DNA of 64,000 bases from Asaia bogorensis. GTDB lineage: Bacteria > Pseudomonadota > Alphaproteobacteria > CACIAM-22H2. The notes under the pieces are model-generated. The model saw only the letters and a list, made by a program, of their open reading frames with translations. It did no database searches and had not been told where the DNA came from. A program made the position numbers and the translations under genes. The DNA is taken from contig CAMDLT010000013.1 in the NCBI GenBank assembly GCA_945901855.1, positions 3,421 to 67,420 of the forward strand, read 5' to 3'. This document shows, one piece after another, positions 14,186 through 32,678 of this stretch (within the stretch, counting starts at the first letter, position 1; the number at the start of each line of letters is the position of its first letter).

Positions 14186-15199
14186 ATGCCGACCGGTGGG
14201 CCGAAAACGAACGGCAGCAAAGAACTCAAGATCGGCTGCACGGCCGGCGGCGCCACGCACAGCGACGCGCGCATTCCCGACATCGGCGAAAAAGTTCGCA
14301 TGATCAAAGAGGCGGGCGTGTTCGACTATATCGACCGCTCGCCGCCGGACGAGGAGTTTCGCGACCTGCTCAAAGCGTGCGAACGCCACGATCTGCCGGT
14401 CCGTGCCAGCGGCTGGTACTACACGCGCGGCCGCGACGAAGCATTGTTCGAACAGAACATCGTCAAGGCACGCTTGCTTGGCAGCATCGTGCACAACGTC
14501 CAGCTTCTGACGCATCATGCCGACGGCCACGCGCTCGACGACGCCGAGGTCGCCGAGACCTATCTGCGCTGGCGCGATTTTGCGATGCGCCACGGCGTCG
14601 AGCCTTCGTTCGAAATCCATGTCAATATGTGGTCCGAGCATTTTGGCCGCGTGGCGCGCGTCGGCAATCTGGTGGAAGCGCGCGGGGTGCCCTTCCGCCT
14701 CACGCTCGACCACAGCCACGTCATTTTTAAGATCGACAATCCGTCCGAGCAGGACGTGCAGCATATGCGCGCCGACGTCGAAGCGGGCCGCGTGATTCTC
14801 GATCCGTCCGCGCCCGGCAATGTCTGCGCGATGTGGATCGAGCGAAACTGGGTCGTCCACGCGCACGCGCGCGCCGCGATCCCGGCCAATCCCCTCAATG
14901 TCTGGGCCAAACATCCCGACGGCAGCTTCGGGCGCGGCATCCAATATCCGTTCGTGTCGCCCGCCCCCGGCACCTACCCAGCCCCCTGGGACGCGGCGAA
15001 GCTCGAACCGTGGAAGCGCGTGGTGCGCGATCTGCTGCGCCATCGCGCGGTCGACCCGAACAGCCCGCTTGGCCAGATCTCGTGCGAATTCATCCCGAAC
15101 ATCGATTACGGCGCCGGGCACGGCTATTCGATCTTCGACAACAACGTGGCCTGCGCGCGTTGGCTCCGGGGCGAATGGGAAGCCACGTCCAACGCCTGA
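14186..15199 (+). CDS. sugar phosphate isomerase/epimerase (xylose-isomerase-like TIM barrel) family protein
   Basis: 337 aa with TIM-barrel His/Glu/Asp metal-ligand pattern (HVNMWSEHFG, LDHSHV, ERNWVVHAHARA). Closes the ABC operon. Confidence 0.65.
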   Translation: MPTGGPKTNGSKELKIGCTAGGATHSDARIPDIGEKVRMIKEAGVFDYIDRSPPDEEFRDLLKACERHDLPVRASGWYYTRGRDEALFEQNIVKARLLGSIVHNVQLLTHHADGHALDDAEVAETYLRWRDFAMRHGVEPSFEIHVNMWSEHFGRVARVGNLVEARGVPFRLTLDHSHVIFKIDNPSEQDVQHMRADVEAGRVILDPSAPGNVCAMWIERNWVVHAHARAAIPANPLNVWAKHPDGSFGRGIQYPFVSPAPGTYPAPWDAAKLEPWKRVVRDLLRHRAVDPNSPLGQISCEFIPNIDYGAGHGYSIFDNNVACARWLRGEWEATSNA

Positions 15200-17185: not shown

Positions 17186-17217
17186 AACAAACCCCCGCGA
17201 CACAGGAGAACGCATCC

Positions 17218-18219
17218 ATGGTCACACGCCAAAAACTCGCCGGTGCTGCCGCGATCGTCGCGGCCGCGACATTCTCGCTGCTGGCGGCCCTGCCCGATGC
17301 CGCCGCCCAGACGCGCGCCCAACCCGCGCGCATCGGCGTGGTGCAGCCCGAAACGGCGCCCAACACCGTCATGTGGCGCCGTTTCGCCGAACTCGCGCGC
17401 GAACGCACGGGCGGCACGGTCGATCTGCAGATCTTCCCGGCCGGCCAGCTTGGCGGCGAGCGCGAAAATGCCGAAGGCATGCGTCTTGGCTCCATCCAGG
17501 GCGCAGATTCGACGCTGGCGGCTCTTTCGCAATGGGTGCCCGAAGGCCAGATCTTCGACATGCCGTTCATCTTCCGCGATTGGGAGCATGTCGAAAAAGT
17601 CGTCAACGGTCCGATCGGCGAACGCTACAAAGCGCTCTATCGGGCGCAAAATTTCGAGGTGCCAGCCTTTTTCACCTACGGCGCGCGCCATCTGGTGAGC
17701 CGCACGCCGATCCTGCAAATTTCCGACGTTCGCGGCAAAACCATGCGCGTGCTGCAAAGCCCGCTGCATATCTCGATCTGGCGCACGCTGGGGGCGAACC
17801 CGACGCCGATCCCGATCACCGAAACCTACAACGCGCTGTCGACGGGCGTTGCCGATCTGATGGACCTGACCAAGGGTCCGATCGAAACGCTGCGCCTGTT
17901 CGAAGTGGCCCCGAATATCACCGAAACCGGCCATATCTGGGCCGTGGGTGCCATCGTATTCTCGCGTCAATACTGGCAACGTCTGTCGCCCGAGCACCAG
18001 CAGGCGATGACGCGCACGGCGCTTGAAATGGCGACCTTCATCAACAACCTCCACAAAGAGCAGGAAGACGCCGCCATGGGCCGCATCACCCAGCGCGGCG
18101 CCAAGCTACACAAGGTCGACCAAGGCCCGTGGCGCACGGCGTTGCAGCCGATTTGGGAGCAAGAAGCGCCAAAATTCGGCGGCATGAACGCGATCACGGA
18201 AATCGTCAACACGCGCTGA
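17218..18219 (+). CDS. TRAP transporter substrate-binding protein (DctP family)
   Basis: Starts MVTRQKLAGAAAIVAAATFSLLAALPDAAAQ (signal peptide), with an AGGAGA RBS 7 nt upstream. DctP-family motifs (QIFPAGQLGGERE, DMPFIFRDWEH). Confidence 0.85.
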   Translation: MVTRQKLAGAAAIVAAATFSLLAALPDAAAQTRAQPARIGVVQPETAPNTVMWRRFAELARERTGGTVDLQIFPAGQLGGERENAEGMRLGSIQGADSTLAALSQWVPEGQIFDMPFIFRDWEHVEKVVNGPIGERYKALYRAQNFEVPAFFTYGARHLVSRTPILQISDVRGKTMRVLQSPLHISIWRTLGANPTPIPITETYNALSTGVADLMDLTKGPIETLRLFEVAPNITETGHIWAVGAIVFSRQYWQRLSPEHQQAMTRTALEMATFINNLHKEQEDAAMGRITQRGAKLHKVDQGPWRTALQPIWEQEAPKFGGMNAITEIVNTR

Positions 18220-18247
18220 CGCCTGCCACGATCGGCGATCGTGCGAA

Positions 18248-18284
18248 AGCGGCCGTCAAGCTTGTGCTTGGCGGCCGCTTTTTG
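18248..18284 (+). terminator. rho-independent terminator after the TRAP binding-protein gene
   Basis: AGCGGCCG (18248-55), a 16-nt loop, CGGCCGCT (18272-79), then a TTTTT run. Confidence 0.5.
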
Positions 18285-18388
18285 TTGGCGGTACGGTCCG
18301 GCGGCAACAGACACGCCGAAAGCGCTTTACGGGATTATCGGCCCGGCATTAGTATGTATACGAACGACCTCGAACAAGGAAAGCGCCC

Positions 18389-19315
18389 ATGGAAGCCTCA
18401 ATGCTCGAAGATATCGTCCAAAACCCCAATCCGTATCCGATCGTTGCCGCGATGGCGTACGACGATATCTGGAAGCTGTGCGAACAGGCACGGGACCTTG
18501 CCTGGGATCCGGCCAAGCTCGATTTCTCCGACCTCAAGCGCGCCGACTTGCCCGACGAAGTGCGCAAGGCCGGCGCCGAATGGTGGTCGCTGCGCGCGTG
18601 GATGGAACACGGCGCTACGCCCTACGGGGCCGAGCGTCTGCGCGATGCGATCTTCGGCCACCAGCCGTTCGAAGTGAAGCAGCACGTTGTCAATTTCATC
18701 GCCGAAGAGCTGCGCCACCACGAAGCGAGCTTTCGCATCGCCAACGCGCTCGACGCCTACCAGCCGTCGCCGCAATCCGACTATTTCATGAAGATCATCC
18801 CGAAGTTCCACAACGAGAAGGAAGAGAAGCAAATGAGCTTCTTTGCCGGCCTTGCCGTAAACACGCTGTTCGAGCAGCTGTCGGGCGAACTGCTGCAGGC
18901 GCGCTACGAAAACGCGCGCTACGAATCGATCCGCGAAGCATGCCGCTTGATCCTTCGCGACGAGGCGCGCCACATTCAATTCGGTCGCATCGTCATGCGC
19001 CGCTTCTTCGGCGAATTGTCGGACTTCGACAAAGAGATGCTCGGCAAGAAGTTCGCCAAGAAACTGCGCGGCTCGCTGCTGAACGGCGTTTATGCGGTCG
19101 TCAATTTGCCGAGCGAAGAGCGCAAGCGCTCCTCGCGCGCGCGCCAGCTTGCCGCCGAGCACGGTCTTGGCGCAACGCACCCCGACCATGAAGTCGCGAT
19201 CATCGCCGACGCGCTGAAGAAGATCCGCGCGGACGTGGCGCCCTACAACGTGCCGATCCCGCCGATCCCGGAAATCGAAGGACCCGCAACGGGCCCTTCG
19301 GCGAAGGCGGCATGA
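18389..19315 (+). CDS. ferritin-like di-iron-carboxylate superfamily protein (putative oxygenase / oxidase)
   Basis: 308 aa with two E...ExxH motifs about 90 aa apart (FIAEELRHHEA and ILRDEARHIQFG), typical of ferritin-like di-iron proteins. No signal peptide. Confidence 0.55.
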   Translation: MEASMLEDIVQNPNPYPIVAAMAYDDIWKLCEQARDLAWDPAKLDFSDLKRADLPDEVRKAGAEWWSLRAWMEHGATPYGAERLRDAIFGHQPFEVKQHVVNFIAEELRHHEASFRIANALDAYQPSPQSDYFMKIIPKFHNEKEEKQMSFFAGLAVNTLFEQLSGELLQARYENARYESIREACRLILRDEARHIQFGRIVMRRFFGELSDFDKEMLGKKFAKKLRGSLLNGVYAVVNLPSEERKRSSRARQLAAEHGLGATHPDHEVAIIADALKKIRADVAPYNVPIPPIPEIEGPATGPSAKAA

Positions 19316-20292
19316 GCGCGCGTTCGCGCCGCGCGATTCTGATCGGCGGCGCCGCCTTGCTGGCGGCGCCCGCGATCGCTCGGGCCCAAGCGGCGTGGCC
19401 CAATCGGCCGGTGCGGTTCGTCGTGCCGTTTCCGCCCGGCGGCGCTGCCGATATTTTGGCGCGCAGCCTGGGCCAGCGCCTGGGCGAGCGCTTGGGCCAA
19501 AGCTTCGCGATCGACAACCGGCCGGGTGCGGGCACCGCCATCGGCACGGCCGCAACCGCGCAGTCCGCCGCCGACGGCTACACAATCATGATCGGCACCG
19601 TCAGTTCGCACGCGATGAACCCCAGTTTGAACCCCAAAGTCGGCTACGATCCGGTTGCCGATTTTGCGCCCGTTGCCGCGTTCGCAACGCTGCCGTTCTT
19701 TTTGGTGGCACACCCGAGCGTGGCCGCACGCGATGCGGGCGAACTCGTGGCCCTCGCGCGCCGCCAGCCAGGACGCCTCAACTACGCGTCGGCGGGCAAC
19801 GGCACGTCGAACCATCTGGCGGGCGAACTGCTCAAGCTTTCGACCCGAACCGACATGGCGCATATCCCCTATCGCGGCTCCGCGCCCGCTTTGGCGGCGG
19901 TCGTGGCGGGCGAATGCCAGATCATGTTCGATCTGTCGATCACGGCGCTGCCGCAGATCCAAGCGGGCGCGGTGCGCGCCTTGGGCGTTGCCAGCAAAAG
20001 CCGCTCGTCGCTGCTGCCCGACGTGCCGGCGATCGCCGAAGCGGTGCCCGGATTCGAGGCGAGCGCGTGGTTCGGCATTTTTGCGCCCGCGCGCACGCCG
20101 GACGCGATCGTGGCGCGATTGGCGGGCGAGATCGACAGCGCGCTCGAAGATCCAGCCATTCGCCAACGTCTGGCCCAGCAAGGGGCGGAACCGATGCGCC
20201 TTGGCCCTGCCCCGTTCGCGGCTTTTGTGCGTGCCGAACTGGCACGCTGGGGCGGCGTCATCCGCGACGCGAAGATCGAAGCCGACGGCTAA
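19312..20292 (+). CDS. tripartite tricarboxylate transporter substrate-binding protein (TctC/Bug family)
   Basis: [51 protein letters not shown] is the canonical Bug-family N-terminus. ATGA overlap with the ferritin-like gene. Confidence 0.85.
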   Translation: [326 protein letters not shown]

Positions 20293-21806
20293 TAGGCGAG
20301 CGCCAGCGCGTCGCGCCGATGGTCGGCGATGGCGATCTTCAGATCGCCGCGCACGCCGACTAGACCGATCGATCCCATCAGCCAATCCGACGGCGGCCGC
20401 AGCGCCAGCCTGTGGCCGCGCGCCGCCAGCGCATCGAGTTCGCCTGCCGGCATTCGCGCTTCGACCGCGATCTGCTCGTCGCCGATAAAACTCCAGCGCG
20501 GCGCCGCAACCGCAAGCTCGGGCCGCGCCGCATCGCGCATCAGCCCGACTGCGATCTGCAGATTCGTTTGCGTCTGCGCTTGCGCGCCCGGCGTGCCGAA
20601 GGCCCAGCAGCCTTCCTCCGCGTGCTGCATCAGCAGGCCGACCAGCGTGTGGCGCGGGCGCTTGCCGGGTGCGGGCGCGTTGGCGCCGTTCGTGAACGAC
20701 GCGCCGCGATCGTTGGAAAGCCAACCGTTGGATGCCAGCACGCGCCCGCCAAAGGGTCGGTAGAGCGAGTGGATCAACGTACACACGCCGCCTTCCGCAT
20801 CGGCGGCGGCGACTTGCGTCGTCTCGCCGTAGTTGCGCGACATGGCCGCGCCAGGCGCCGCGCGGTGGCCGATCGACTCGCGCCGCACGCGCATGCCGGC
20901 CGTTTCCAGCATCGCGGCCGCAACGCGCGTCTGGGCGCCATCGTCGCCCAGCGCCGCAAGATCGCCAAACGCGCGCTTGAACGCCTCGATCAGCATATGC
21001 GTGCGATGGCTCGCATCGTTCTCGCGAACCGTATCTGCGCCTGCGATGCCAAGGGCTGCCAAAGTGGCGCAACTCTGGCTCATCGGCGGTTGGCCGTAGA
21101 TCGTCCACGCACCGAAGGAAAGCGCCAGCGGCCTTTCGACGACGGGCGCAAAAGCGCAGGCTTCGTTTGCGCCAACGGCCGTGCCCGCCTTCAGCCAATC
21201 GTCGCAGGCGCGCGCAAGTTCGCCCTGCGGGCCCGATTTGCGCCATGCCAAAAGACTGTCGGCAAGGCCGGGGACGACAAAACGCGCATCCGTTCGCGGC
21301 AAGCGACCGCCATTGGCATCTGCCAAGGCCGTTCGCAACGCGCCGTCGCGCAATGCTTGCAACTGGCGATCGAGCCTTGCCGTCACGGCAACGCCGCGCG
21401 TGGCAAGTGCGATCGCCGGCACCAAAGCCGCCGCACGCCCCAAGCGCGAGGCTTGCGATGCCAAAAGTTCGAATGCGGCCGACGCCCCCGGGATCAGGCA
21501 GAGCCCGGCGCGATCCGCATCCGTTGCCGGATGCACGTATTCTTTGGGCGCGGGTCCGGCCCCGTTGACCGCATGGACGGCCCCCGTCGCGTCGCGCCAC
21601 AGCGCGAACAGATCGCCGCCGGGACCGCACATGTCGGGCATCGCTGCCCAGTCGCATGCAGCCATGGCAAGGCACGCATCGAGCGCGTTGCCGCCCGCCG
21701 CCATTGCCTGCACGCCCGCAAGCGCGGATGCCGGATGCCCCGCCACGGCAGCGCCGCCAAGTCCGCGTGCGGCATGGCCGCTGCCATACGCGATGTCGCC
21801 GCTCAT
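20289..21806 (-). CDS. gamma-glutamyltransferase (GGT) family protein, no signal peptide
   Basis: GGT-family autoprocessing/nucleophile region YGETTQVAAAD. Start chosen at MSGDIAYGSG (ATG 21806), which overlaps the stop of the upstream Fe-ADH gene. The N-terminal 159 codons of ORF 20289..22283 are rejected. Confidence 0.7.
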   Translation of the reverse strand: MSGDIAYGSGHAARGLGGAAVAGHPASALAGVQAMAAGGNALDACLAMAACDWAAMPDMCGPGGDLFALWRDATGAVHAVNGAGPAPKEYVHPATDADRAGLCLIPGASAAFELLASQASRLGRAAALVPAIALATRGVAVTARLDRQLQALRDGALRTALADANGGRLPRTDARFVVPGLADSLLAWRKSGPQGELARACDDWLKAGTAVGANEACAFAPVVERPLALSFGAWTIYGQPPMSQSCATLAALGIAGADTVRENDASHRTHMLIEAFKRAFGDLAALGDDGAQTRVAAAMLETAGMRVRRESIGHRAAPGAAMSRNYGETTQVAAADAEGGVCTLIHSLYRPFGGRVLASNGWLSNDRGASFTNGANAPAPGKRPRHTLVGLLMQHAEEGCWAFGTPGAQAQTQTNLQIAVGLMRDAARPELAVAAPRWSFIGDEQIAVEARMPAGELDALAARGHRLALRPPSDWLMGSIGLVGVRGDLKIAIADHRRDALALAY

Positions 21807-22966
21807 TCGGCGAAGATCGGGCGCGCGCCGCCCGTGGGCGTGCGCATGGCTTCCAGCATTTTGCGCGCGTCTTCGATCGTCGCCAGACGCGGGTTCATGC
21901 GCACTTGGCCCGACCGCATTGCGGCTTGCGCCACTTTTTCGCGCGCCGCATCGTCGGGAACGTAACGGTCGAGCGACAGATCGAGCCCGACCGCGAGGCG
22001 CAAGCGCGACATCGCATCGGCCGCCGACAGCGCGTCGAACGCCGCCGCGATTGCCTGCGCTTTGGCGCCCATTTTGGGCTCGTTGAACGCCGTCACGATC
22101 GGCAGCGCCAGCGCGTTGCCAAGTCCGTGCGCCACGTGATGCAACGCGCCCAGCGGCGCCGCAAACGCATGCGCCAAACCCAGATTGGCGCTGTTGAACG
22201 CAATGGCGGCCTGGCACGAACCGATAAGGCACGCCCCGCGCGCTTCGAGATTGCCGGGCTCGCGATACGCAACGGGCAGCCATTTGGCAAGCAGACGCAT
22301 CGCTTCGAGCGCATAGGGATCGGTCATGACCGACGACGCGTTCGAGACATACGCTTCAACCGCGTGCGTGACGGCATCGTAGCCCGATTGGGCCGTGACG
22401 ACCGGCGGGCACGAAGCGCTCAACGCCGGGTCGAGCAGCGCGATCGCCGCCGTCATCTCGGGCGACCGGAAGATGAGTTTGACATCCGAGCCCGATTTGG
22501 ACGCGATGGCGGATTCCGAAACTTCCGAGCCGGTTCCGGCCGTGGTCGGCACGCACACGAACAGCGAGGCGTGCGCGCGCAACGTCTTGCCGAACCCGGC
22601 GACGCCCTCGACCGGACCGGGGTTCGAGAGCAGCATGCGCGCGACCTTGGCCGTATCCATCGCCGAACCGCCGCCGATCGCCACGATCATGTCGGGATCA
22701 GCCTCGGCCAATTCGACGGCCACCGCCGCGATCGTGTCGGAGGTCGGTTCGTGCGTCGGCACGCCGATGGCGCGCGGAACGCTGCCCGTGCCCGCCTGCA
22801 ATGCAGCCGTCGCGCGGGCCACGATTTCGCCGCCGATGAAAAACCCGTCGACGACCAAAACCGGTCGCGTGCAGCCGAACTCTTTGGCGATCGCCGCAAG
22901 TTTGTCGAGCGCATTGGCGCCGAACACGACGCGGCGCGTCGAATGGAAAAAGACCAGATCGTTCAT
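21803..22966 (-). CDS. iron-containing alcohol dehydrogenase family protein
   Basis: Fe-ADH motifs GGGSAMDTAK, metal-binding histidines AHAFAAPLGALHHVAHG. Start at MNDLVFFHSTRRVVFGANAL (ATG 22966); a GTG at 22996 is an alternative. Confidence 0.85.
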   Translation of the reverse strand: MNDLVFFHSTRRVVFGANALDKLAAIAKEFGCTRPVLVVDGFFIGGEIVARATAALQAGTGSVPRAIGVPTHEPTSDTIAAVAVELAEADPDMIVAIGGGSAMDTAKVARMLLSNPGPVEGVAGFGKTLRAHASLFVCVPTTAGTGSEVSESAIASKSGSDVKLIFRSPEMTAAIALLDPALSASCPPVVTAQSGYDAVTHAVEAYVSNASSVMTDPYALEAMRLLAKWLPVAYREPGNLEARGACLIGSCQAAIAFNSANLGLAHAFAAPLGALHHVAHGLGNALALPIVTAFNEPKMGAKAQAIAAAFDALSAADAMSRLRLAVGLDLSLDRYVPDDAAREKVAQAAMRSGQVRMNPRLATIEDARKMLEAMRTPTGGARPIFAE

Positions 22967-23044
22967 GGGGTTTTGGGTCCAATCGCAAATTGACACGATT
23001 GTCGTAGCCTAGCCCCGCCGCAATGCCTGCGCAACCGAGATGGC

Positions 23045-23233
23045 CTAGGTCCGGGCGACCGCTTCAAGCTCGTCGATCAACGCGACGATCACGGGCATGG
23101 GCCGACAATCGCGCAGCAATCCGACGGCCGCCGCCGCCAGTGCCGGGTCATGCATCACGCTATGCGCGCTGGCTTCGGGAAAGCCCTGCACGCGCAAAGT
23201 CTCCAGGCAAATGTCGAGAATTTCAGCGCGCAT
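23045..23233 (-). CDS. hypothetical small protein (62 aa)
   Basis: An ORF that exactly fills the 20-nt-flanked gap between the deacetylase and Fe-ADH genes on the same strand. No recognisable motif. Confidence 0.3.
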   Translation of the reverse strand: MRAEILDICLETLRVQGFPEASAHSVMHDPALAAAAVGLLRDCRPMPVIVALIDELEAVART

Positions 23234-23253
23234 CGCGAGGCCTCAAAGATGCT

Positions 23254-24120
23254 TTACCGACGCCAATGATCGGCTATCGCGTCGCTGGTCGCAAGCCATA
23301 CGTCGTCGCGCCGTTGGGCCACGTGCTGCAACGCCAGGCGCAAGGCCCGAATGCGAAATGGCTGCCCCGCCACATAGGCATGCAGGGCAATCCCCATCGC
23401 CAAGGGCTGGGCTTGGGCCTGCTCGCGCATTTCGTCGAACTGGGCCACGATCATGTCGGCAAATTGTTCGGCCGTGTGGCGGCGCGCGACGATCGCGTTC
23501 GAATCGTTGAGCTCTTGCGGATACGGGACCGCGAGCAAACGACCGGCCGTTGTCGCAAGCCACACCGGCTGGTCGTCCAAGCACCAATCGAGCGTGTAGC
23601 CAAAGCCTGCCTCGGCCAAAATCTCGGGCGTGACCGGCGTTTGGGCGATCCAGGGGCCAAGCCAGCCTTGCGGCGGCGCGCCTTCGTGCCGCGCGATTGT
23701 GTCGCGCGCAGTTTCGACCAGCGAGCGCTCGTTTGCCGGATCGAGCCCGGCTTGGCTTTCGCTGTTGGTGCGGCCGTGCGCCACGATCGCGGCGCCCGCC
23801 GCGCGATAGGCCGCAACCAGCGGCGCATGGCGGTCGTAGATCGCCGAATTCACCAGCAGCGACACCGGCAGATCGAGCGCTTTGAACATCTCGAGCAAAC
23901 GCCAAGCGCCCACGCGATTGCCGTATTCGCGCCACGACCAGTTCAGCACATCGGGCTGGCCGGCGCCCGGCACGATATCCTCGCTCAAACCTACGCCAAA
24001 CGCGTAGCTCTCCAAATTGAGCGCGACGTACACGGCCAGGCGCTTGCCCTGGGGCCATAGCGGCGTTTGGCGCGCGACGATCGGCGTGTCGTCGAAGCGT
24101 CCGGGATGCGGAAGTTTCAT
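23254..24120 (-). CDS. polysaccharide deacetylase family protein (PuuE-type allantoinase-like)
   Basis: 288 aa, NodB-like fold motifs (LAVYVALNLESY, HGRTNSE, DWCLDDQP). 4-nt overlap with the upstream racemase gene. Confidence 0.75.
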   Translation of the reverse strand: MKLPHPGRFDDTPIVARQTPLWPQGKRLAVYVALNLESYAFGVGLSEDIVPGAGQPDVLNWSWREYGNRVGAWRLLEMFKALDLPVSLLVNSAIYDRHAPLVAAYRAAGAAIVAHGRTNSESQAGLDPANERSLVETARDTIARHEGAPPQGWLGPWIAQTPVTPEILAEAGFGYTLDWCLDDQPVWLATTAGRLLAVPYPQELNDSNAIVARRHTAEQFADMIVAQFDEMREQAQAQPLAMGIALHAYVAGQPFRIRALRLALQHVAQRRDDVWLATSDAIADHWRR

Positions 24121-24860
24121 TCGCCCTTCAGCCGAGCGGCCAACGCGGCGTCGAGCCCGACGGTCTCGCGGCCCTTCGGCGTCGAGAAACTGCCCACAAG
24201 CGGCTTGGCGATCTTCATGCGCACAAACGCTTCGAGCATCGGCACGCCCGTGGTGATGCCGTCGACGACCGGCACTTCGATGCGCGGCTGCAGCAAGGCC
24301 GGCACGCCTGCCATTACGGCACCGGTCAGCAAAATCGCTTCGGCCCCGTCGCGTGCGACAAGATCGGCGCAGGCAGCAACGATCATCTCCTCCACTTCCG
24401 ACTGGTCGCCGGGCGCGTAAGGTGCCGCACTGTCGATCGCGCGCCAGCCCGCAACTTTGCCTGCAAGACCGGTCGCATCGACCACGTCGCGATAAAGCCC
24501 GAGCACGCGCGAACCGAACACGATCACGCCCACGCGTCCGCCCGCGATCGTGGCGGCATGCAAGGCAGCCTCCGTCATCCCCAGAACCGGGATGCCGAGC
24601 ATTTCGCGCAAGGCTTTGGCACCCGTGTCGTAGGAAACGGCGATCAGCACGCCGTCGAACCCCGCCGCATGGGCAGCGCCCAGCGCCACGGCCGAGTGCT
24701 CGCCGATCGCATTTTCGGTACGCGAGCCGATCACGCGCGCGCCAAAGCTGCCCGTCACGGCCTCGATCTGCGTGTCCGGCAGCGCTGCTTTGCGCGCCGC
24801 TGCAAGAACCTTGGCCGTGACGAAGGCGGACGTGTTGGCATTGATCAGCAAAAGACGCAT
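24117..24860 (-). CDS. Asp/Glu/hydantoin racemase family protein (allantoin/hydantoin racemase-like)
   Basis: 247 aa, MRLLLINANTS... with the paired Cys/Ser-containing half-domains typical of the family (IAVSYDTGAKA, ILLTGAVMAG). Confidence 0.75.
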   Translation of the reverse strand: MRLLLINANTSAFVTAKVLAAARKAALPDTQIEAVTGSFGARVIGSRTENAIGEHSAVALGAAHAAGFDGVLIAVSYDTGAKALREMLGIPVLGMTEAALHAATIAGGRVGVIVFGSRVLGLYRDVVDATGLAGKVAGWRAIDSAAPYAPGDQSEVEEMIVAACADLVARDGAEAILLTGAVMAGVPALLQPRIEVPVVDGITTGVPMLEAFVRMKIAKPLVGSFSTPKGRETVGLDAALAARLKGE

Positions 24861-24867
24861 GGAATCC

Positions 24868-26187
24868 TCAGTCGAACGATTGGCGCGGCAGCCACAGCGC
24901 GATGTCGGGCCATACCCACAGCAGCCATACCCACAGCAGCCAGACCAGCAGCAGCATCATCAGCAAGAACGGCAGCGTGCCGACGATCACGTCGGTAATC
25001 AAGCCCTCGCCGCGAATTCCCTGCACGACGTACAGGTTCATGCCCACCGGCGGCGTGATCAGCGCAAGTTCGGCCATCACCACCAGATAGATGCCGAACC
25101 ACACCGGATCGATCCCAACCGCCATGACCAGCGGGAAGACAACCGGGATAGTACCGATGATCATCGCCAGCGCATCGAGAAAACATCCAAGAATAAGATA
25201 GAATACGGTCAGGATCGCGATCAGCAATCCAGGCGACGCGCCGATCGACTTGACGTACTCGGCCAGCGCCTGCGGCACGCCCATCAGTCCCAGCACGAAG
25301 TTCAGATAGAAAGCCGCCGCCGCGATCAGCATGATCATCGCCGTCACCGAAACGGTGGAGACGAAGCTTTCATGCAGCATGCTCCACGAAAGTTTGCCGT
25401 AGCCCGCTGCCAGTGCGAGCGCGACCGCAACGCCGATCGCGGCCGATTCGGTTGGCGTTGCCCAGCCAAGATAGATCGTCCCCATAACGGCCACAAAAAT
25501 AGCCATCGGCGGCAGCAAATCCACGAGCCGCGCCAGACGCACCAAAAGCGGCGCCGCCTTTTCGACCGGCCCCGACAGCGACGGCCGCCACTTGCAAAGC
25601 AGGATGACGATCAGCATGAACAGGGCCGTCAGAATCAATCCCGGAATGACGCCCGCGGCGTACAAGCGCCCGACCGACGTATTGGTCATGGCGCCATAGA
25701 TGATCATATTGATGCTCGGCGGAATAAGAATGCCGAGCGTTGCGCCCGCCGCGACGGTGCCCAGTACCAGACGGTCGTCGTAGCCGCGATTGCGGAAGGC
25801 CGGAATGGCGACCGTGCCGATCGTCGCAGCCGTTGCAACGGACGAACCCGAAACGGCCGCAAACATCGCGGACGCACCGATATTCGTGTGCAACAGGCCG
25901 CCCGGCAGCGGGTTGAGCCAGTCGGACAAAGCGCGATACATCCGGTCGGTAAACCCGCCGCGCACCAGAATTTCGCCCAGCAGCACAAAGAGCGGAATCG
26001 CGACCAGGACAAAATTGTTGGTCGCGCCCCAAAACTGATTGCCGAAATTCATTACCGCCGGCGTGCCGAGATAAAGTATCGCGCCCACCATGCTGACGGC
26101 GAACATCACGAACGCGATATGCAGGCCAAGCGTCATCAGCCCCACAAGCAGGAAAAACCCGATCGCCGCCGATCCGACATCGATCAT
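24868..26187 (-). CDS. TRAP transporter large permease (DctM)
   Basis: 439 aa from MIDVGSAAIGFFLLVGLMTL, 12+ TM segments, DctM motifs (AVSGSSVATAATIG, GVIPGLIL). ATGA overlap with dctQ. The C-terminus contains the WLLWV tandem repeat. Confidence 0.85.
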   Translation of the reverse strand: MIDVGSAAIGFFLLVGLMTLGLHIAFVMFAVSMVGAILYLGTPAVMNFGNQFWGATNNFVLVAIPLFVLLGEILVRGGFTDRMYRALSDWLNPLPGGLLHTNIGASAMFAAVSGSSVATAATIGTVAIPAFRNRGYDDRLVLGTVAAGATLGILIPPSINMIIYGAMTNTSVGRLYAAGVIPGLILTALFMLIVILLCKWRPSLSGPVEKAAPLLVRLARLVDLLPPMAIFVAVMGTIYLGWATPTESAAIGVAVALALAAGYGKLSWSMLHESFVSTVSVTAMIMLIAAAAFYLNFVLGLMGVPQALAEYVKSIGASPGLLIAILTVFYLILGCFLDALAMIIGTIPVVFPLVMAVGIDPVWFGIYLVVMAELALITPPVGMNLYVVQGIRGEGLITDVIVGTLPFLLMMLLLVWLLWVWLLWVWPDIALWLPRQSFD

Positions 26188-26771
26188 GGTTTTTCTCCAA
26201 GCTGCTTGCGCGCGTCGAGTTCGGCGTCGATTTCGTCCTGGGCCGTCGTCGGCCCGTAGAGCCGATTGAGACGCCGACGGTTGCTCGCCAGCAGCCAAAG
26301 CGCGTGCACGCAGTAGGCCGTCGCGAACGATGCGAACAGGCCCAACCCGAACAGCCACGCGCCTTGCGGCAACCACAGCGGCGTCTGCAGCGGATTGGTT
26401 GCGACAGAGCGGAACTCGATGCTCTCCAGCAGCACGCTCGATCCGCGCCAAAAGGCGAAACACGCGAACCCGGCGAGCGCAACCATCGCAACGGCATTCA
26501 GCAGCGCCTGCACGCTCGCCGGGAAGCGGACCAGAAAGACGTCGATGCGCGTATGGCCGCGCATCGCCATGGTGTAGGATGCGCCAATCGCCGACGCGAT
26601 CGCCAGCGCATAGCCGCCGATATCGTCGACCCCTTGGAGCGAAAAGGCGAAGAATTTGCGGCCCAGAACCTCGACGACGATCGCGAACGACAGCGCCAAG
26701 ATTCCGTAACCGCAAACGATCGCGGCAAACCGAGCGACGGGCAATGCGACCTTGCCGACCGGATTGTCCAT
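26184..26771 (-). CDS. TRAP transporter small permease (DctQ)
   Basis: 195 aa, 4 TM segments, adjacent to and overlapping dctM. Confidence 0.85.
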   Translation of the reverse strand: MDNPVGKVALPVARFAAIVCGYGILALSFAIVVEVLGRKFFAFSLQGVDDIGGYALAIASAIGASYTMAMRGHTRIDVFLVRFPASVQALLNAVAMVALAGFACFAFWRGSSVLLESIEFRSVATNPLQTPLWLPQGAWLFGLGLFASFATAYCVHALWLLASNRRRLNRLYGPTTAQDEIDAELDARKQLGEKP

Positions 26772-26782
26772 CGCGCGCTCCC

Positions 26783-27838
26783 CTATTCGATCTTGAAGCC
26801 GCGGGCGCGGCCGACCGTCTCGTTCCAGGCGGTCGAACAGGCCGGATCGACGCGGTTACAGGTCTGCTTCCAGATCGGCAGCACAACGGCCGTGACAGCC
26901 GCATTGATCTTGCGCTGGTCTTCGGGCGAAACCTCGACCAGGCGCATGTTGTACTTGGTGCCTTCCGTGCAGGGATCGCGACCGATATTGCAGTTGATCG
27001 CGTCGCCGTTGGCGGTTTCGGCCAGCGCCCACATCTGGTCTTCCATCTTCTTGAACTCCGCCAGCAGACGCGTCTGCGCTTGCGGCGAATAGCGCTTCCA
27101 ATGGTCCAAGTTCATGAAGTGACCCTGCACCGAACCCGACACCGACAGCGGCAGGAAGTGCGAGGTGACTTCCGGCCATTTGCCCGAATTGCCCGAGGTT
27201 GGCGAGGTCACGCCGCAATCGACCACGCCGCGCTGCAGCGACGGATACACTTCCGAGAACTGCAGCGTGACGGGAATGGCGCCCAGATGCTGCACCAAAG
27301 CCGCCATCGAAGGCGTGAAGCTGCGCACTTTGAGGCCGCGCACGTCGTCGATGCTGCGGATTTCTTTGTTGCAGTAGAAGACCTGCGGGCCGAACGGCCA
27401 CAAGGTCATGACCTTGGCATTGAAACGCTGCTGCAGGCGCGCGTCGAACGCGTCCCGATAGGCATCGACCGCCGCGCGCAACTGCTTCATGTCGGTCGAA
27501 ACGCCGATCAAATCGATGCCTTCGAAAAAGGGATCGTCGCGCGAGGCCATGCCGATCTGCACCGACATCACGTCGAACGTGCCCGAGCGCAGCAGACGCA
27601 GCGCGTCGGCGGCCTGGACGTTCAGCACGTCCATCGGGTTGTAGTTTATCGTCATCGCCACGCCCGACGTCGTCGGCAGGCTCGCGAAAAACGGTTTCTC
27701 GATGTTGTCGACATGCTTGGTGTTCGACGAAAAATTGCCTGCGATGCGCATCGAATTGGGATTTTGCTGCGCCTCGGCTCCGTTTGCCCAAACGAACAAG
27801 GCGGCGGCGGCAATGGCAGTCAAGTTTGCGTATCTCAT
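26783..27838 (-). CDS. TRAP transporter substrate-binding protein (DctP family)
   Basis: Starts MRYANLTAIAAAALFVWANGAEA (signal peptide), GAGGAAG RBS upstream. 351 aa. Confidence 0.85.
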   Translation of the reverse strand: MRYANLTAIAAAALFVWANGAEAQQNPNSMRIAGNFSSNTKHVDNIEKPFFASLPTTSGVAMTINYNPMDVLNVQAADALRLLRSGTFDVMSVQIGMASRDDPFFEGIDLIGVSTDMKQLRAAVDAYRDAFDARLQQRFNAKVMTLWPFGPQVFYCNKEIRSIDDVRGLKVRSFTPSMAALVQHLGAIPVTLQFSEVYPSLQRGVVDCGVTSPTSGNSGKWPEVTSHFLPLSVSGSVQGHFMNLDHWKRYSPQAQTRLLAEFKKMEDQMWALAETANGDAINCNIGRDPCTEGTKYNMRLVEVSPEDQRKINAAVTAVVLPIWKQTCNRVDPACSTAWNETVGRARGFKIE

Positions 27839-28623
27839 CGTATCTTCCTCTCTTTTGCGTTCGTAGACGGTTCGGGGCCAAGATCCAGCCCCGCGACAAC
27901 ATGGTCGAGATGATGGCGCATCAGCGTTACAGCGAGCTTGGCATTGCCGGCCTCGATCGCATCGACGATGGCCGAATGTTCGTCCGGCGGGCAGGCTTTG
28001 TCGTCCGGGCGACCATGGGCGAGGATGGCGAGGCACGTGATCGCCTCGATCTGCTCCAAGGTCTGCGCCAAAACCCGGTTTCCGGCGGCCCGCGCCAGGA
28101 TCAGATGGAATTCGCCGGTGAGCCTTACGAGCAAGTCCGAATCACCGCGCGTGCGCGCCTCGTCTTCGGCCTGCAAGTGTTTGCGAAGCACCGCAACCGT
28201 ATCGCTGTCCGCCCGGCACGCCACGCGCGCGACCAAATCGGATTCAATCAGCCGACGCGCATCGAACACTTCGCGCGTGCGCCGCGCGTCCGGCGTCGCG
28301 ATTGTAGCGCCGCGATTGGGCAGCATATCGACCAGACCGGCTTGCGCCAATTTGGCGATTCCGTGCCGCACGATCGTGCGGCTCACGCCAAAATATTTGC
28401 CGAGTTGCTCTTCGACCAGACGCATGCCGGGCGCCAAACGATGGGCTTGGATTGCCTCGACGACGCGCACAAAAACGGTGTCGGCGGAGGCCACGGCGCG
28501 CGGCGCAGGCACCAGCGCCCGCTTCCGGCGCGATCTGACCAATCCACGAACCGCATCTGCCTTCGAATTGAGCATCATTCCCCGGAATAGCTGCGCCGCC
28601 CGTTGCATGCATTCTGGATGCAT
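27835..28623 (-). CDS. GntR-family (FadR-like) transcriptional regulator
   Basis: HTH GVSRTIVRHGIAKLAQAGLV followed by an all-alpha FCD-type C-terminal domain. Start ambiguous (ATG 28623, 28608 or 28578). The 3' end overlaps the dctP start. Confidence 0.7.
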   Translation of the reverse strand: MHPECMQRAAQLFRGMMLNSKADAVRGLVRSRRKRALVPAPRAVASADTVFVRVVEAIQAHRLAPGMRLVEEQLGKYFGVSRTIVRHGIAKLAQAGLVDMLPNRGATIATPDARRTREVFDARRLIESDLVARVACRADSDTVAVLRKHLQAEDEARTRGDSDLLVRLTGEFHLILARAAGNRVLAQTLEQIEAITCLAILAHGRPDDKACPPDEHSAIVDAIEAGNAKLAVTLMRHHLDHVVAGLDLGPEPSTNAKERKIR

Positions 28624-28631
28624 AGATCGGG

Positions 28632-28650
28632 CCAATTTGTATCCAATTGG
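28632..28650. promoter_or_regulatory. inverted repeat CCAATT-N7-AATTGG immediately upstream of the gntR start
   Basis: An AT-rich palindrome with TGTAT core in a GC-rich background, lying in the 34-nt gap between the amidohydrolase and gntR genes. Resembles GntR/FadR-type operators. Confidence 0.3.
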
Positions 28651-28657
28651 TCGCGCG

Positions 28658-30169
28658 TTATCCTTGCCCGCCGCGCCGCTCGAGGCCGACATCGCACGAC
28701 ATTGCGCGCAGATAGAGCGCGCGGTAGTAGGGCTCGAGTTCTGCCGCTTGCGCGCGCAACGTCGCCATTTCGGCCGAAAGTTTGGGCGCCAGGGCGGCGA
28801 TTTCGGCATACAAAGCGCCTTCGTCGAGCGACAGCAATTTGCCGCTTTCGACCACCTGGCGACCGGCGACAAAAACGTCGCGCACGGAGGCGCCCGTCTC
28901 GCAATAGACCAGCTGGCGATCAAGATCGTTGAGCGGCACGTAAGCCGGATTGGCCATGTCGAGCAGGATGAAATCGGCCGCCGCGCCCGCCGCCAAAACG
29001 CCGAGCTGCTCGGGGCGTCGCGCCGCCCGCGCGCCGCCGACGTAGAGCGTTTCGAGGATCTCGGGCGCCGTGGGCCAGTCGCGCCAGTCGTCGCGCGTCA
29101 GATTGTGGACGAGCCCCGCCGCCTTTGCCGCCAGCCACAAATTATGCGTATCGTCGACCGTGGCCTCGTCGGTGCCGAGCGCAAGGGGCACGCCCGCGTT
29201 GCGCAGCCGCCGCCACGGCATGGTCCCGCTGCCCAGGCGCATATTGCACACCGGATTGTGCGCGACCGTGCAGCCCGAGCGCGCCAGTATCGCGATATCG
29301 GCATCGTCGACCCAGATCGCATGGATCACCAGCATGCGTTCGTCGAGCAGGTTCAGATCGTCGATATAGCGCACCAGCGACTTGCCGAACTTCTGCGCGC
29401 CGAACACGCGCTGGGTTTTGGTTTCCAGCACATGCACGAAGAACGGCAAATCGCGGCTGCGCGACAGCGCCGACAGACGCTTGAAATAGTCGACGGTCAC
29501 GCGGTGCGGTGCCGAACACGAGACCGCCGCCGCCAAGCGCCCCTCGGCCGCGCCGTGCCAAGTTTCGACCAGATGCGCGTAGTTCGCCATCAGCTCGTCG
29601 GCCGACTGGAGCGGCGCTTCATCCATCCTGCGGCGGAGGGACGAAGGCAGCAGTTCCGCCAAAAACGGCTGCTTGTCGTATTCGACGATGTTCTGCTGGT
29701 CGAGTGCCAGTGTCGCGCGCATGCCGCTGTCGCGATAGGCCGACATGACGGCGTCGATAGCACCGGGCGATACGGTCGGCACAAAAAATGCGTCGTCGAG
29801 CACGGTCGTAATGCCGAGCTTCAGCATTTCGATCGCGCCCAATGCCGTGCGCAGATAGGCAAGCCGCGCCGCGCTCTCGCCCGACGCCAAGGGCGGCACC
29901 TCGTAGAGCATGAAAATTTCGAGCGGATACGAATCGAGCGTGCCGCGCATCAGATTGCCGGGCGAATGGACATGCGCGTTGATCAGACCGGGCAAAGCCA
30001 GTTTTCCACCCGCATCGATGCGCGGCGCGTCGCCTGCGAGCATTTCGGCCGGCACGTATCCGACAGCCAAAAACTTTCCGTCGCGAATCGCAATCTCGCC
30101 GCTTACGATGCCGCGCGGACTTTTTGCATCGGGCAGGCGGACATTTGCGATCAGCAGATCGTTCGGCAT
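28658..30169 (-). CDS. amidohydrolase (cytosine/guanine deaminase, chlorohydrolase-like metal-dependent hydrolase) family protein
   Basis: 503 aa from MPNDLLIANVRLPD. Metal-binding N-terminus LPGLINAHVHSPGNLMRG (HxH), HAIW, and a C-terminal aspartate region GTDEATVDD. Confidence 0.8.
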   Translation of the reverse strand: MPNDLLIANVRLPDAKSPRGIVSGEIAIRDGKFLAVGYVPAEMLAGDAPRIDAGGKLALPGLINAHVHSPGNLMRGTLDSYPLEIFMLYEVPPLASGESAARLAYLRTALGAIEMLKLGITTVLDDAFFVPTVSPGAIDAVMSAYRDSGMRATLALDQQNIVEYDKQPFLAELLPSSLRRRMDEAPLQSADELMANYAHLVETWHGAAEGRLAAAVSCSAPHRVTVDYFKRLSALSRSRDLPFFVHVLETKTQRVFGAQKFGKSLVRYIDDLNLLDERMLVIHAIWVDDADIAILARSGCTVAHNPVCNMRLGSGTMPWRRLRNAGVPLALGTDEATVDDTHNLWLAAKAAGLVHNLTRDDWRDWPTAPEILETLYVGGARAARRPEQLGVLAAGAAADFILLDMANPAYVPLNDLDRQLVYCETGASVRDVFVAGRQVVESGKLLSLDEGALYAEIAALAPKLSAEMATLRAQAAELEPYYRALYLRAMSCDVGLERRGGQG

Positions 30170-30246
30170 GAATCGATTTTCCCGAAAAAGCATCGGCGAC
30201 AAGTGTGCGGGCCGAACGGCCTGCGAGGCAAGAGGACACAAGGCAG

Positions 30247-30990
30247 ATGGCATTCAATCCCGCAAACCGCAAGCTCGTCGGCATGCTGACCCCGTCGTCC
30301 AATACGGTCCTCGAGCCCATGACGGCCGAGATGCTGGCAGGCCTGCCGGACGTGAGCGCGCATTTCGCGCGTTTTCGTGTGACCGAAATTTCGCTCGAGC
30401 CCGGCGCGCTCAAGCAGTTCGACGAAGCGCCAATTCTGGAAGCCGCACGCCTGCTGGCCGATGCGCGCGTGGGCGCCATCGTGTGGAACGGCACGTCGTC
30501 GGGGTGGCTTGGCCTCGATGCCGACCGGCGTCTGTGCGCTTCGATCCGCGACGCGACGGGCATTGCGGCAGGCACGTCCGTGCTGGCGCTGGTCGATATC
30601 CTGCGCCGCCAGACCGCCAAAAAAATCGGCTTCGTGACGCCGTATCTGGACGATATCCAAACGCGCATCGTCGCCAACTTTGCCGCGGAGGGCTTCGAAA
30701 CAGTCGCCGAGCGGCATCTTGGCGACCGCGGCAATTTTTCGTTCTCCGAATACAGCGAAGAACGGATTGCCGGGCTAGTGCGCGAGGTCGCCCAAGCGAA
30801 GCCCGATGCGATCAGCGTCTTTTGCACCAACATGCGCGGCGCGCGGGTTGCGGCGGCGCTCGAAAAAGAACTCGGCATTCCGATCTACGACACGGTCGCG
30901 ACCGCCGTGTGGACCGGCTTGCGGCTGGTCGGCGCAGCGCCCCGGCGCATCGCGGGCTGGGGCAGCCTCTTTTCCAATTTCGGCGATTGA
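30247..30990 (+). CDS. Asp/Glu racemase superfamily protein (maleate isomerase / arylmalonate decarboxylase / EutA-like)
   Basis: 247 aa, MAFNPANRKLVGMLTPSSNTVLEPM...AIVWNGTSSGW...VFCTNMRGA, the two-half-domain pattern of this family. Divergent from the 10 kb operon. Confidence 0.7.
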   Translation: MAFNPANRKLVGMLTPSSNTVLEPMTAEMLAGLPDVSAHFARFRVTEISLEPGALKQFDEAPILEAARLLADARVGAIVWNGTSSGWLGLDADRRLCASIRDATGIAAGTSVLALVDILRRQTAKKIGFVTPYLDDIQTRIVANFAAEGFETVAERHLGDRGNFSFSEYSEERIAGLVREVAQAKPDAISVFCTNMRGARVAAALEKELGIPIYDTVATAVWTGLRLVGAAPRRIAGWGSLFSNFGD

Positions 30991-31394: not shown

Positions 31395-31395
31395 C

Positions 31396-32670: not shown

Positions 32671-32678
32671 CGTTTCGA

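Follow-up and report, generated by a model that had tools for sequence, protein, structure and literature searches.

Two abutting gene modules in a 64-kb stretch of an Asaia bogorensis contig, one of them a proposed hydrolytic N-heterocycle catabolic cluster with atypical active sites

The described systems closest to the genes studied here are the allantoin racemase and allantoinase pairs of purine catabolism, the hydantoin-utilisation clusters and the ectoine clusters. In the allantoinase PuuE, a Glu-His-Trp triad replaces the Asp-His-His metal site of the polysaccharide deacetylase fold and is joined by a second catalytic His (Ramazzina 2008, quoted in PMC11424739). Cyclic imides are also hydrolysed by true PuuE-family enzymes, and DdaH, of the polysaccharide deacetylase family, has been reported to mediate the conversion of a hydantoin-containing iprodione intermediate (PMC11424739; PMC12927932, respectively). 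The Klebsiella allantoin racemase KpAllR contacts its substrate through Asn12, Thr118 and Thr119 (PMC12661438). Known ectoine clusters unite a tripartite ATP-independent periplasmic (TRAP) transporter, EutA, a ring hydrolase, a deacetylase and a GntR-superfamily regulator (PMC5924519). Arylmalonate decarboxylase (AMDase) genes are often flanked by TRAP or tripartite tricarboxylate transporter (TTT) genes, and their natural role is unknown (PMC4996985). Here we analyze a stretch of 64,000 nucleotides (positions 3,421 to 67,420 of contig CAMDLT010000013.1, assembly GCA_945901855.1, assigned to Asaia bogorensis), the whole of which is called the window below. An earlier note on its sequence had proposed that ten minus-strand genes, for an amidohydrolase (AmiH), a GntR regulator with an FCD domain (FCD-GntR), a TRAP transporter (DctP, DctQ, DctM), a racemase-fold protein, a PuuE-like hydrolase, a 62-aa protein, an iron-type alcohol dehydrogenase (Fe-ADH) and a GGT-family hydrolase, form one operon for an undescribed pathway. 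Our analysis indicates that this run very probably consists of two independently conserved modules that abut at 23233/23254: module A (23254-30990), which includes a divergent AMDase-like gene, and module B (about 14186-23233), which continues on the plus strand.

Two gene modules placed end to end

A scan of a genome collection, anchored on an alignment of PuuE-like homologues, returned 80 loci, which were compared with all proteins of the window. The AmiH, racemase-fold and PuuE-like genes were found together in 21 of these loci, in metagenome-assembled genomes (MAGs) of Tagaea and in many Betaproteobacteria, including Uliginosibacterium, Variovorax, Rubrivivax and Aquincola. Variovorax robiniae KACC 18901 and Uliginosibacterium sediminicola are carriers available in culture. 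The FCD-GntR and AMDase-like genes are also present in most of the loci that carry this three-gene core, and 15 of the 80 loci encode a DctP that is 70-87% identical to that of the window. The Fe-ADH, GGT and 62-aa genes, in contrast, occur in none of the 80 loci. The neighbourhood profiling that had been suggested for the run therefore supports a recurrent module A core, to which the last three genes do not belong.

We also looked up six contexts of GGT homologues, and module A is missing from five of them. In these, GGT homologues of 51-76% identity are accompanied by the small protein, Fe-ADH, a TctC-family solute-binding protein, a ferritin-like diiron protein and a TRAP transporter. In Telmatospirillum (locus L084), the 62-aa, Fe-ADH and GGT genes are convergent with genes for TctC, a 308-aa diiron protein, DctP and a fused DctQM, as in the window, and a LacI/sugar-ABC cluster takes the place of module A. 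Two further loci (L091 and L093) show the order diiron, DctQM, DctP, GGT, small protein, Fe-ADH, TctC as one co-directional operon, which lies behind a UTRA-GntR gene, and the same core comes with an ABC transporter in loci L086 and L092. The juxtaposition of the two modules seen in the window is repeated only in locus L083, from a close relative whose GGT is 85% identical.

It is distinctly unlikely, in our view, that the ten minus-strand genes form one operon for one new pathway, with the ring-opening products passed on to Fe-ADH and the cytoplasmic GGT-like amidase for further processing. Several observations do weigh against a separation into two modules. All ten genes share a strand and the gaps around the 62-aa gene are short (20 and 78 nt), this gene beginning 20 nt past the stop of the PuuE-like gene with no convincing terminator between them; terminator-like sites do not stand out between the modules, where their frequency is no higher than in shuffled sequence. 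The layout is kept in L083, where the small ORF (open reading frame) overlaps the PuuE-like stop. Moreover, a one-mismatch version of the predicted operator of the module A regulator (TTGGACCCAA on the gene strand, 22973-22982) precedes the ADH start by 7 nt, and away from GntR promoters sites of this kind occur very seldom. However, this site carries a second mismatch in L083 and has no counterpart in Telmatospirillum, the ADH, GGT and 62-aa genes are lacking from every locus anchored on the PuuE-like gene, and in five other contexts they lie with their own TRAP, TctC, diiron and UTRA-GntR genes in the absence of module A. Module B is therefore taken to be separate, its position behind module A on one strand being incidental to this lineage, and the ADH and GGT genes should not be read into the module A pathway when such loci are annotated.

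Because the window is GC-rich (about 64%), raw ORF lists were noisy, and frames were selected by third-position GC and start context. Ten intact ORFs were obtained on the minus strand from 30169 down to 20289, together with the divergent gene, and gene calls made separately on the 223-kb metagenome contig from which the window comes gave the same proteins, so the single run described in the earlier note is real. Its statement of 4-nt overlaps holds for four of the nine junctions (GntR/DctP, DctQ/DctM, racemase-fold/PuuE-like and ADH/GGT), the remaining five being gaps of 49, 11, 7, 20 and 78 nt. Its family-level calls were upheld by Pfam (Amidohydro_1, GntR and FCD, DctP/DctQ/DctM, Asp_Glu_race, Fe-ADH, G_glu_transpept). 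In profile comparisons, none of the proteins of the run reached an NCBIfam equivalog cut-off. A long ORF in locus L024 that looked like a fusion of the racemase-fold and PuuE-like genes was dismissed as an ORF-extension artefact of high-GC DNA. Coordinates are collected in Table 1.

Table 1. Features of modules A and B in the window
Feature	Module	Coordinates (strand)	Length (aa)	Remarks
AMDase-like protein	A	30247..30990 (+)		Pfam Amdase and Asp_Glu_race
AmiH	A	28658..30169 (-)	503	Amidohydro_1, cytosine-deaminase/chlorohydrolase (ATZ/TRZ) type
Predicted operator of the FCD-GntR regulator		28637..28646		TTGTATCCAA on the plus strand, TTGGATACAA on the gene strand
GntR regulator with FCD effector domain	A	27835..28608 (-)	257	Pfam GntR and FCD
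DctP, TRAP solute-binding protein	A	26783..27838 (-)	351	Signal peptide
DctQ, TRAP small membrane subunit	A	26184..26771 (-)	195	Pfam DctQ 77.7 bits
DctM, TRAP large membrane subunit	A	24868..26187 (-)	439	Pfam DctM 301 bits
Racemase-fold protein	A	24117..24860 (-)	247	Hydantoin/allantoin type, without catalytic Cys
PuuE-like hydrolase	A	23254..24120 (-)	288	Polysaccharide deacetylase fold
Conserved small protein	B	23045..23233 (-)	62	
Fe-ADH, iron-type alcohol dehydrogenase	B	21803..22966 (-)	387	Fe-ADH and ADH_Fe_C
GGT-family Ntn hydrolase, signal-less	B	20289..21806 (-)	505	G_glu_transpept 200 bits
TctC-family solute-binding protein	B	19312..20292 (+)	326	Pfam TctC 236 bits, convergent with GGT
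Ferritin-like diiron protein	B	18389..19315 (+)	308	Weak AurF/R2 similarity
TRAP transporter of module B	B	15311..18219 (+)		Fused DctQM 15311-17185, DctP 17218-18219
337-aa protein	B (probable)	14186..15199 (+)	337	No Pfam or NCBIfam match

With regard to module B, the small proteins beside Fe-ADH and GGT in loci without module A (62-78 aa) are clearly homologous to the 62-aa protein, and Fe-ADH, whose best NCBIfam match is ErcA (224 bits versus a cut-off of 550), always adjoins a GGT homologue in the contexts looked up. The GGT-family protein scores 125 bits against TIGR00066 (equivalog cut-off 357.85), passes the Pfam family cut-off and keeps the Thr329/Thr330 nucleophile motif, by which it is classed as a GGT-fold Ntn hydrolase; its N-terminus has no signal peptide, as had been noted earlier. 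Its similarity to PDB chain 5hft, which we take to be Klebsiella HpxW, is distant (39.6 bits). HpxW, the oxamate amidohydrolase of Klebsiella, is itself a GGT-fold enzyme, which counters the previous argument that a cytoplasmic GGT is foreign to purine routes. TctC is conserved beside ADH and GGT in L084, L091 and L093, which also have the same TRAP genes (the DctP of module B scores 214.7 bits in Pfam); in the gene calls on the source contig, the TRAP genes of the window bear the corresponding Pfam families. The diiron protein, conserved in module B loci, matches Pfam AurF and Ribonuc_red_sm below their cut-offs (24 and 22 bits, respectively). A gene of about 340 aa, which may correspond to that of the 337-aa protein, comes after TctC in L091, and in L083 it lies where the 337-aa gene lies in the window.

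Active sites of the module A enzymes

AmiH scores 132.7 bits against Pfam PF01979 (cut-off 25) and contains HxH (66/68), HxxE (246/249), H304 and D334, all conserved in 38 orthologues; judging by these residues, it has the full metal-ligand and acid set of the cytosine-deaminase/chlorohydrolase group. Its best NCBIfam scores are 190-215 bits, obtained with MTA/SAH, 5'-deoxyadenosine and 8-oxoguanine deaminase and "chlorohydrolase" models, versus cut-offs of 520-610; the 8-oxoguanine and guanine deaminase models give about 190 bits. HutF and HutI, whose substrates are acyclic and cyclic amidine carboxylates, give lower scores than the deaminase models, and the nearest structures are AtzA and deaminases from structural genomics. 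Since AmiH is about equally distant from all characterised members, it would belong to none of the named specificities.

For the PuuE-like hydrolase, a weak Polysacc_deac_1 match and a PuuE-like NCBIfam match support the part of the earlier assignment that concerns the fold. Its score against PuuE (TIGR03212) is 126.8 bits versus an equivalog cut-off of 424.6 (120 bits for the orthologue in locus L010), and it matches PuuE and relatives in the PDB with E-values of about 1e-27. E37, H115 and H247 are kept, whereas N119 (His+4), invariant in 14 homologues, sits at the Trp of the Glu-His-Trp triad, so the protein is not counted as PuuE proper. More than 6700 homologues were found. A gene 56% identical to it on a Sulfitobacter plasmid comes after genes for a two-Cys racemase and an NTF2-like protein and precedes genes for an N-carbamoyl-D-amino-acid hydrolase and a dihydropyrimidinase. 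On a Polaromonas plasmid, a 48%-identical copy is clustered with genes for an NTF2-like protein, a racemase-family protein, an ABC transporter, a ring-opening amidohydrolase of the cyanuric acid hydrolase family, ureidoglycolate lyase and dihydropyrimidinase. On account of these plasmid neighbours, of the cyclic imide hydrolysis by PuuE-family enzymes and of DdaH, we place the family in cyclic amide/ureide metabolism. 5-Oxoproline was considered as a substrate and ruled out on thermodynamic grounds, its hydrolysis requiring ATP.

In addition, an AmiH/PuuE-like pair was observed in Acetobacteraceae and Steroidobacteraceae loci (L063, L064, L046-L059, L082) with a TonB-dependent receptor and a peptide/opine-type ABC transporter; in L063 and L064 the pair is also linked to a canonical two-Cys hydantoin racemase. 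This linkage implies that the pair is tied neither to TRAP uptake nor to the Cys-less partner described below.

The racemase-fold protein, whose stop overlaps the PuuE-like start by 4 nt, scores 123 bits against Pfam Asp_Glu_race and aligns end to end with allantoin racemases in the PDB (85-99 bits), which agrees with the fold implied by the earlier label of an HpxA-type racemase. Such racemases use two catalytic Cys (Cys79 and Cys184 in the Klebsiella enzyme). At these columns the module A protein has Val75 and Gly180, none of 25 orthologues has a Cys at either column, and the only Cys of the protein (164) is not conserved; on this point the label fails. AVSYD and GAVMAG are invariant in the orthologues, and one or both Cys have been retained by paralogues encoded at these loci. 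In chain 5lfd, the allantoin racemase of P. fluorescens, Gly aligns with the first Cys column, so absence of the first Cys alone is indecisive and only absence of both is decisive. Having no thiols at these columns, the protein could not act as a two-thiol racemase. Of the KpAllR contacts, Asn12 is kept as Asn9 (the second Asn of INANTS), and Thr118/Thr119 align with Phe115/Gly116. An exhaustive search of 1.8 billion cluster representatives was carried out, and about 120 of the nearest full-length ones were examined: four have both Cys, 16 only the first and about 100 neither. Because the Cys-less form accounts for about 100 of about 120, the loss is not local decay, and there is apparently, to judge from these sequences, a large and uncharacterised Cys-less clade of the hydantoin/allantoin-racemase fold. 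The Cys-less representatives (50%-identity clusters; proteins P0188-P0337) show the motifs [AG][VIM]S[FYWL]D[TS] and GA[VA]xAG.

These active sites bear directly on the suggestion that module A is a variant allantoin/ureide (purine) route, with an allantoin racemase, an allantoinase and an AmiH that deaminates a precursor derived from purines, for instance a product of guanine oxidation. It is true that allantoin racemases and PuuE allantoinases are the closest structures solved, that the racemase-then-hydrolase order with its 4-nt overlap mirrors known pairs, and that the models for 8-oxoguanine and guanine deaminases give AmiH about 190 bits. Nevertheless, the route is very improbable in view of the missing catalytic Cys, the Phe-Gly in place of Thr118/Thr119, the Asn at the triad Trp and the PuuE score (126.8 versus 424.6), and the analogy with hpxAB drawn in the earlier note does not extend to the active sites. 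Moreover, the 21 kb annotated with Pfam contain no uricase, HIU hydrolase, OHCU decarboxylase, allantoate or ureidoglycolate enzyme; urate and allantoin pathway families are found neither among the called genes of 13254-34121 nor among the recurrent neighbour families of the 80 loci; and a TRAP transporter with a carboxylate-type Arg (see below) speaks against the neutral allantoin.

The product of the divergent gene scores 66.6 bits against Pfam Amdase. In NCBIfam its top match is EutA (TIGR02990; 74.2 bits versus a cut-off of 318), and it scores 62.2 bits against AMDase (NF052327; cut-off 225). It had previously been labelled as maleate isomerase or EutA-like. Maleate cis-trans isomerase uses two catalytic Cys, one per half-domain; here Gly82 (WNGTSSG) stands in for the first of them, which leaves Cys193 alone, and all 16 relatives show this pattern. 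HMMER alignment to 2vlb/3dg9 places G82/T83/S84, Y133 and C193 on AMDase G74/T75/S76, Y126 and C188, so that the predicted active site shows the dioxyanion-hole (Gly-Thr-Ser, Tyr) and single proton-donor Cys pattern of AMDase and the label has to be replaced. Orthologues keep WNG[TS] and CTN. Two subtypes of about 41% identity were distinguished, WNGTSSG in the window and Tagaea and WNGSKGG in most betaproteobacterial clusters. In one Tagaea MAG (locus L003, region 5983-9043) AmiH is flanked by both subtypes, WNGTSSG at 5983-6912 and WNGSKGG at 8300-9043; the second of these is missing from the window.

All ORFs in the loci were also clustered and neighbour families of the PuuE-like gene were ranked over 67 loci, which gave AmiH 37, GntR 37, racemase-fold 28, DctM 25, DctP 16 and AMDase-like 14; the further recurrent neighbours are transporters (ABC, MFS with porin, and TonB-dependent receptors). 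The AmiH/PuuE-like combination is the commonest pair (37 of 67), and loci L004 and L006 keep AmiH, TRAP and the PuuE-like gene in the absence of the racemase-fold gene. These counts would suit a model that treats the racemase-fold and AMDase-like proteins as passengers, either non-catalytic or unrelated, and reduces module A to a two-enzyme N-scavenging unit of AmiH and the PuuE-like hydrolase. We regard such a model as improbable: Ser-Tyr-Asp and GAVMAG are invariant across distant racemase-fold orthologues, the Cys-less form is the majority of the nearest representatives, which speaks for selection on function, and the catalytic set of the AMDase-like protein is conserved.

Uptake, regulation and a possible route

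The TRAP transporter of module A is complete, with the Pfam cut-offs for DctP, DctQ and DctM all exceeded, as well as that of TIGR00786 for DctM. DctP is a divergent member of its family (89 bits in Pfam) whose betaproteobacterial orthologues are 70-85% identical to it, that of Uliginosibacterium sediminicola KACC 19271 at 75%. Its mature form would lack residues 1-23. Its Arg172 (GLKVRS) falls on the Arg conserved in a typical DctP, the one encoded at 33161-34144; in TRAP binding proteins, this Arg binds the carboxylate, as established for SiaP, and the module A DctP is accordingly predicted from its sequence to be of the carboxylate type. The nearest PDB chains are 2pfz/2pfy (only 49-52 bits), presumably the Bordetella pyroglutamate binders, and the ectoine-binding TeaA/UehA (2vpn, 3gyy) score only about 26 bits. 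At the 3' end of dctM (24909-24955) there is a 15-bp tandem repeat of 3.1 copies, which encodes LLWVWLLWVW; the DctM orthologue in L083 is shorter by 5 aa, that is, by one repeat unit.

A third TRAP transporter is encoded upstream at 31014-34144 (DctP 33161-34144, DctQ, DctM 31396-32670), together with a 126-aa cupin that resembles the C-terminal part of mannose-6-phosphate isomerase. This group of genes, which converges on the AMDase-like gene, is shared with L083 and not with other module A loci, and its DctP is closest to PDB 4p9k/4pak (173 bits). These genes were considered as part of the module and rejected: the binding protein of the second TRAP transporter in betaproteobacterial loci is only 28-30% identical, and no loci other than L001 and L083 have the cupin.

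Since EutA is the best NCBIfam match of the AMDase-like protein and known ectoine clusters have a comparable composition, module A might also be read as ectoine-type catabolism of a cyclic amidine carboxylate, with AmiH acting on the amidine ring like HutI or DoeA, the PuuE-like hydrolase, by its deacetylase fold, taking off the N-acyl group so formed like DoeB, an EutA-like epimerase and a UehABC-like TRAP transporter; the weaker matches of AmiH to HutF and HutI would fit. This seems unlikely. The EutA score is 74 bits against 318, no eutB, eutC, eutD or eutE family was found by Pfam in the neighbourhood (13254-34121), TeaA/UehA score below 2pfz/2pfy, no aminotransferase or semialdehyde dehydrogenase is linked, and the carriers are mostly freshwater and soil Burkholderiales.

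The FCD-GntR regulator has 257 aa in the contig gene call, with an alternative start at 28578, and its stop overlaps the dctP start by 4 nt. A search for a perfect palindrome upstream of the GntR genes found none; a k-mer count then revealed that 8-mers of TTGGATACAA/TTGTATCCAA are the commonest words there. With one mismatch allowed, sites were counted within 330 bp upstream of the GntR gene and were present in 22 of 28 module A loci, at a density of 5.0 per kb versus 0.013 per kb in the rest of the loci (about 390-fold). The site between AmiH and GntR is the sole exact match in the window, and the divergent region between AmiH and the AMDase-like gene has none. Operator-like sites (TTGKATMCAA) are often paired 23 bp apart (for example -200/-177 and -51/-28) in loci L004-L078, which suggests tandem binding by the regulator.

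On balance, we lean slightly towards a model of two modules in which module A imports and hydrolyses a small organic anion, likely a carboxylated N-heterocycle. The substrate class had already been proposed as a carboxylated cyclic amide or ureide, and it is still the most sensible one because DctP keeps its Arg and relatives of the PuuE-like protein lie in hydantoinase, carbamoylase and ring-opening clusters. More exactly, the chances seem about even that the substrate is an anionic carboxylated N-heterocycle with an amidine- or guanidine-type C-N bond and a cyclic amide, ureide or imide. No specific compound is given more than a slim chance: hydantoin-5-acetate/-propionate, iso-orotate/5-carboxycytosine, 2-aminothiazoline-4-carboxylate, alloxanate/oxonate and pterin-6-carboxylate were weighed and were neither supported nor excluded. 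A correspondence of AmiH and the PuuE-like enzyme to the thiohydantoin desulfurase and the hydantoin-5-propionate hydrolase that act in ergothioneine breakdown was a further possibility considered.

In the proposed route, periplasmic DctP would bind the acid through its conserved Arg, and DctQM would import it. AmiH may then exchange an amidine N (or similar leaving group) for O, with release of ammonia, or open a cyclic amidine, and the PuuE-like enzyme would open the resulting cyclic amide, ureide or imide, or remove an N-acyl group. The AMDase-like protein could form an enediolate beside the carboxylate, and thereby decarboxylate a malonate-type intermediate or epimerise that carbon. The racemase-fold protein, translationally coupled to the PuuE-like gene, might work with non-thiol residues (the invariant Ser-Tyr-Asp) or serve as an accessory partner. 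FCD-GntR is expected to repress the transporter/hydrolase operon at TTGGATACAA until a pathway metabolite binds.

A bolder reading, less likely than not, is that two racemase-superfamily proteins of non-canonical chemistry take part in an undescribed module A pathway for a carboxylated cyclic amidine, ureide or imide: a member of the large Cys-less racemase-fold clade would act with or beside the PuuE-like hydrolase, and an AMDase-type single-Cys protein would be a physiological decarboxylase or epimeriser. A number of points count against the favoured model of module A. Superfamily membership is the basis of every chemical step; no characterised deaminase stands out among the poor scores of AmiH; the racemase-fold protein could be devoid of catalytic activity; and the AMDase-like gene of the window is a paralogous subtype and not that of most betaproteobacterial clusters. 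Besides, the PuuE-like/AmiH pair is served elsewhere by ABC, MFS or TonB-dependent transporters, so a carboxylate is suggested only for the TRAP-linked version.

The core genes are nonetheless real and conserved, and no paper describing the gene combination of module A was found in the literature searched, in line with the previous view of the system as uncharacterised. If the bolder reading is correct, it would provide the first natural metabolic role for the AMDase lineage, whose members are so far known mainly as biocatalysts. Module A is spread over Tagaea-like Alphaproteobacteria and many Burkholderiales, and thousands of PuuE-like homologues are present in metagenomes; solving it could reveal a new N- and C-scavenging route for an environmental N-heterocycle, a role for the Cys-less members of the hydantoin-racemase fold and the natural function of AMDase-like enzymes. 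The module offers a testable entry point, since its binding protein is highly conserved, its regulator has a clear operator and its four enzymes are small and soluble. A module A 76-87% identical to that of the window and collinear with the Tagaea MAG of locus L006 was also seen in L004, a contig labelled Halotia wernerae UHCC 0503 (JAYGHB010000002.1); the assembly is cyanobacterial, but the probable source of this contig is a heterotroph that grew along in a non-axenic culture and not the cyanobacterium.

Comparison with known systems

With the allantoin racemase and PuuE/HpxB pairs (Pseudomonas allR-puuE, Klebsiella hpxAB), module A shares both folds, the gene order and the tight coupling, as well as the Glu and both His of PuuE, and these pairs supply its nearest solved structures. 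It differs from them in having neither the catalytic Cys nor the Thr-Thr of the racemase, in the Trp-to-Asn change and low PuuE score (127 versus 425), in uptake by TRAP and in the lack of purine-pathway neighbours. The cyclic imide hydrolase BpIH of Burkholderia phytofirmans, a PuuE-type enzyme that opens non-allantoin rings without a metal (PMC11424739), has the same fold as the PuuE-like protein; however, BpIH is 61% identical to PuuE and keeps Glu-His-Trp, whereas the protein of module A has Asn and is only distantly paralogous.

Hydantoin-utilisation clusters likewise combine a racemase-fold protein, a ring-opening hydrolase, a transporter and a GntR regulator, and relatives of the PuuE-like protein sit inside such clusters on the Sulfitobacter and Polaromonas plasmids. 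Module A, in contrast, has no hydantoinase or carbamoylase and contains a deaminase-type amidohydrolase and an AMDase-like protein instead, and its racemase-fold protein has no catalytic Cys where the Sulfitobacter racemase has both. The ectoine clusters uehABC-eutABCDE/EnuR of Ruegeria pomeroyi and Sinorhizobium meliloti resemble module A in possessing a TRAP transporter, a racemase-superfamily enzyme, a ring hydrolase, a deacylase and a GntR-superfamily regulator (PMC5924519), but their hydrolases belong to other families (DoeA M24-like, DoeB aspartoacylase-like) and their regulator is of the MocR type rather than the FCD type. In addition, the module A counterpart of EutA is far below the EutA cut-off, and its DctP is not TeaA- or UehA-like.

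At the level of single enzymes, AmiH has the Amidohydro_1 domain and the HxH, HxxE, His and Asp residues of the cytosine-deaminase/chlorohydrolase group (AtzA/TrzN, the MTA/SAH, guanine and 8-oxoguanine deaminases, and HutF), while for every named member its scores of 190-215 bits contrast with cut-offs of 520-610. The Gly-Thr-Ser, Tyr and single Cys of Bordetella bronchiseptica AMDase align residue for residue with the AMDase-like protein, which nevertheless has only 58 bits to the structures (and 62 versus 225 for NF052327). The Cys motif is SCGG in AMDase and CTN here, the likeness being set by the catalytic residues, pocket residues aside; CTN resembles the Cys motif of maleate isomerase. 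Taken together, the logic of module A resembles that of the allantoin, hydantoin and ectoine systems yet departs from each of them at its defining features, and the module is best described as a hydrolytic N-heterocycle catabolic cluster of known superfamilies with atypical active sites.

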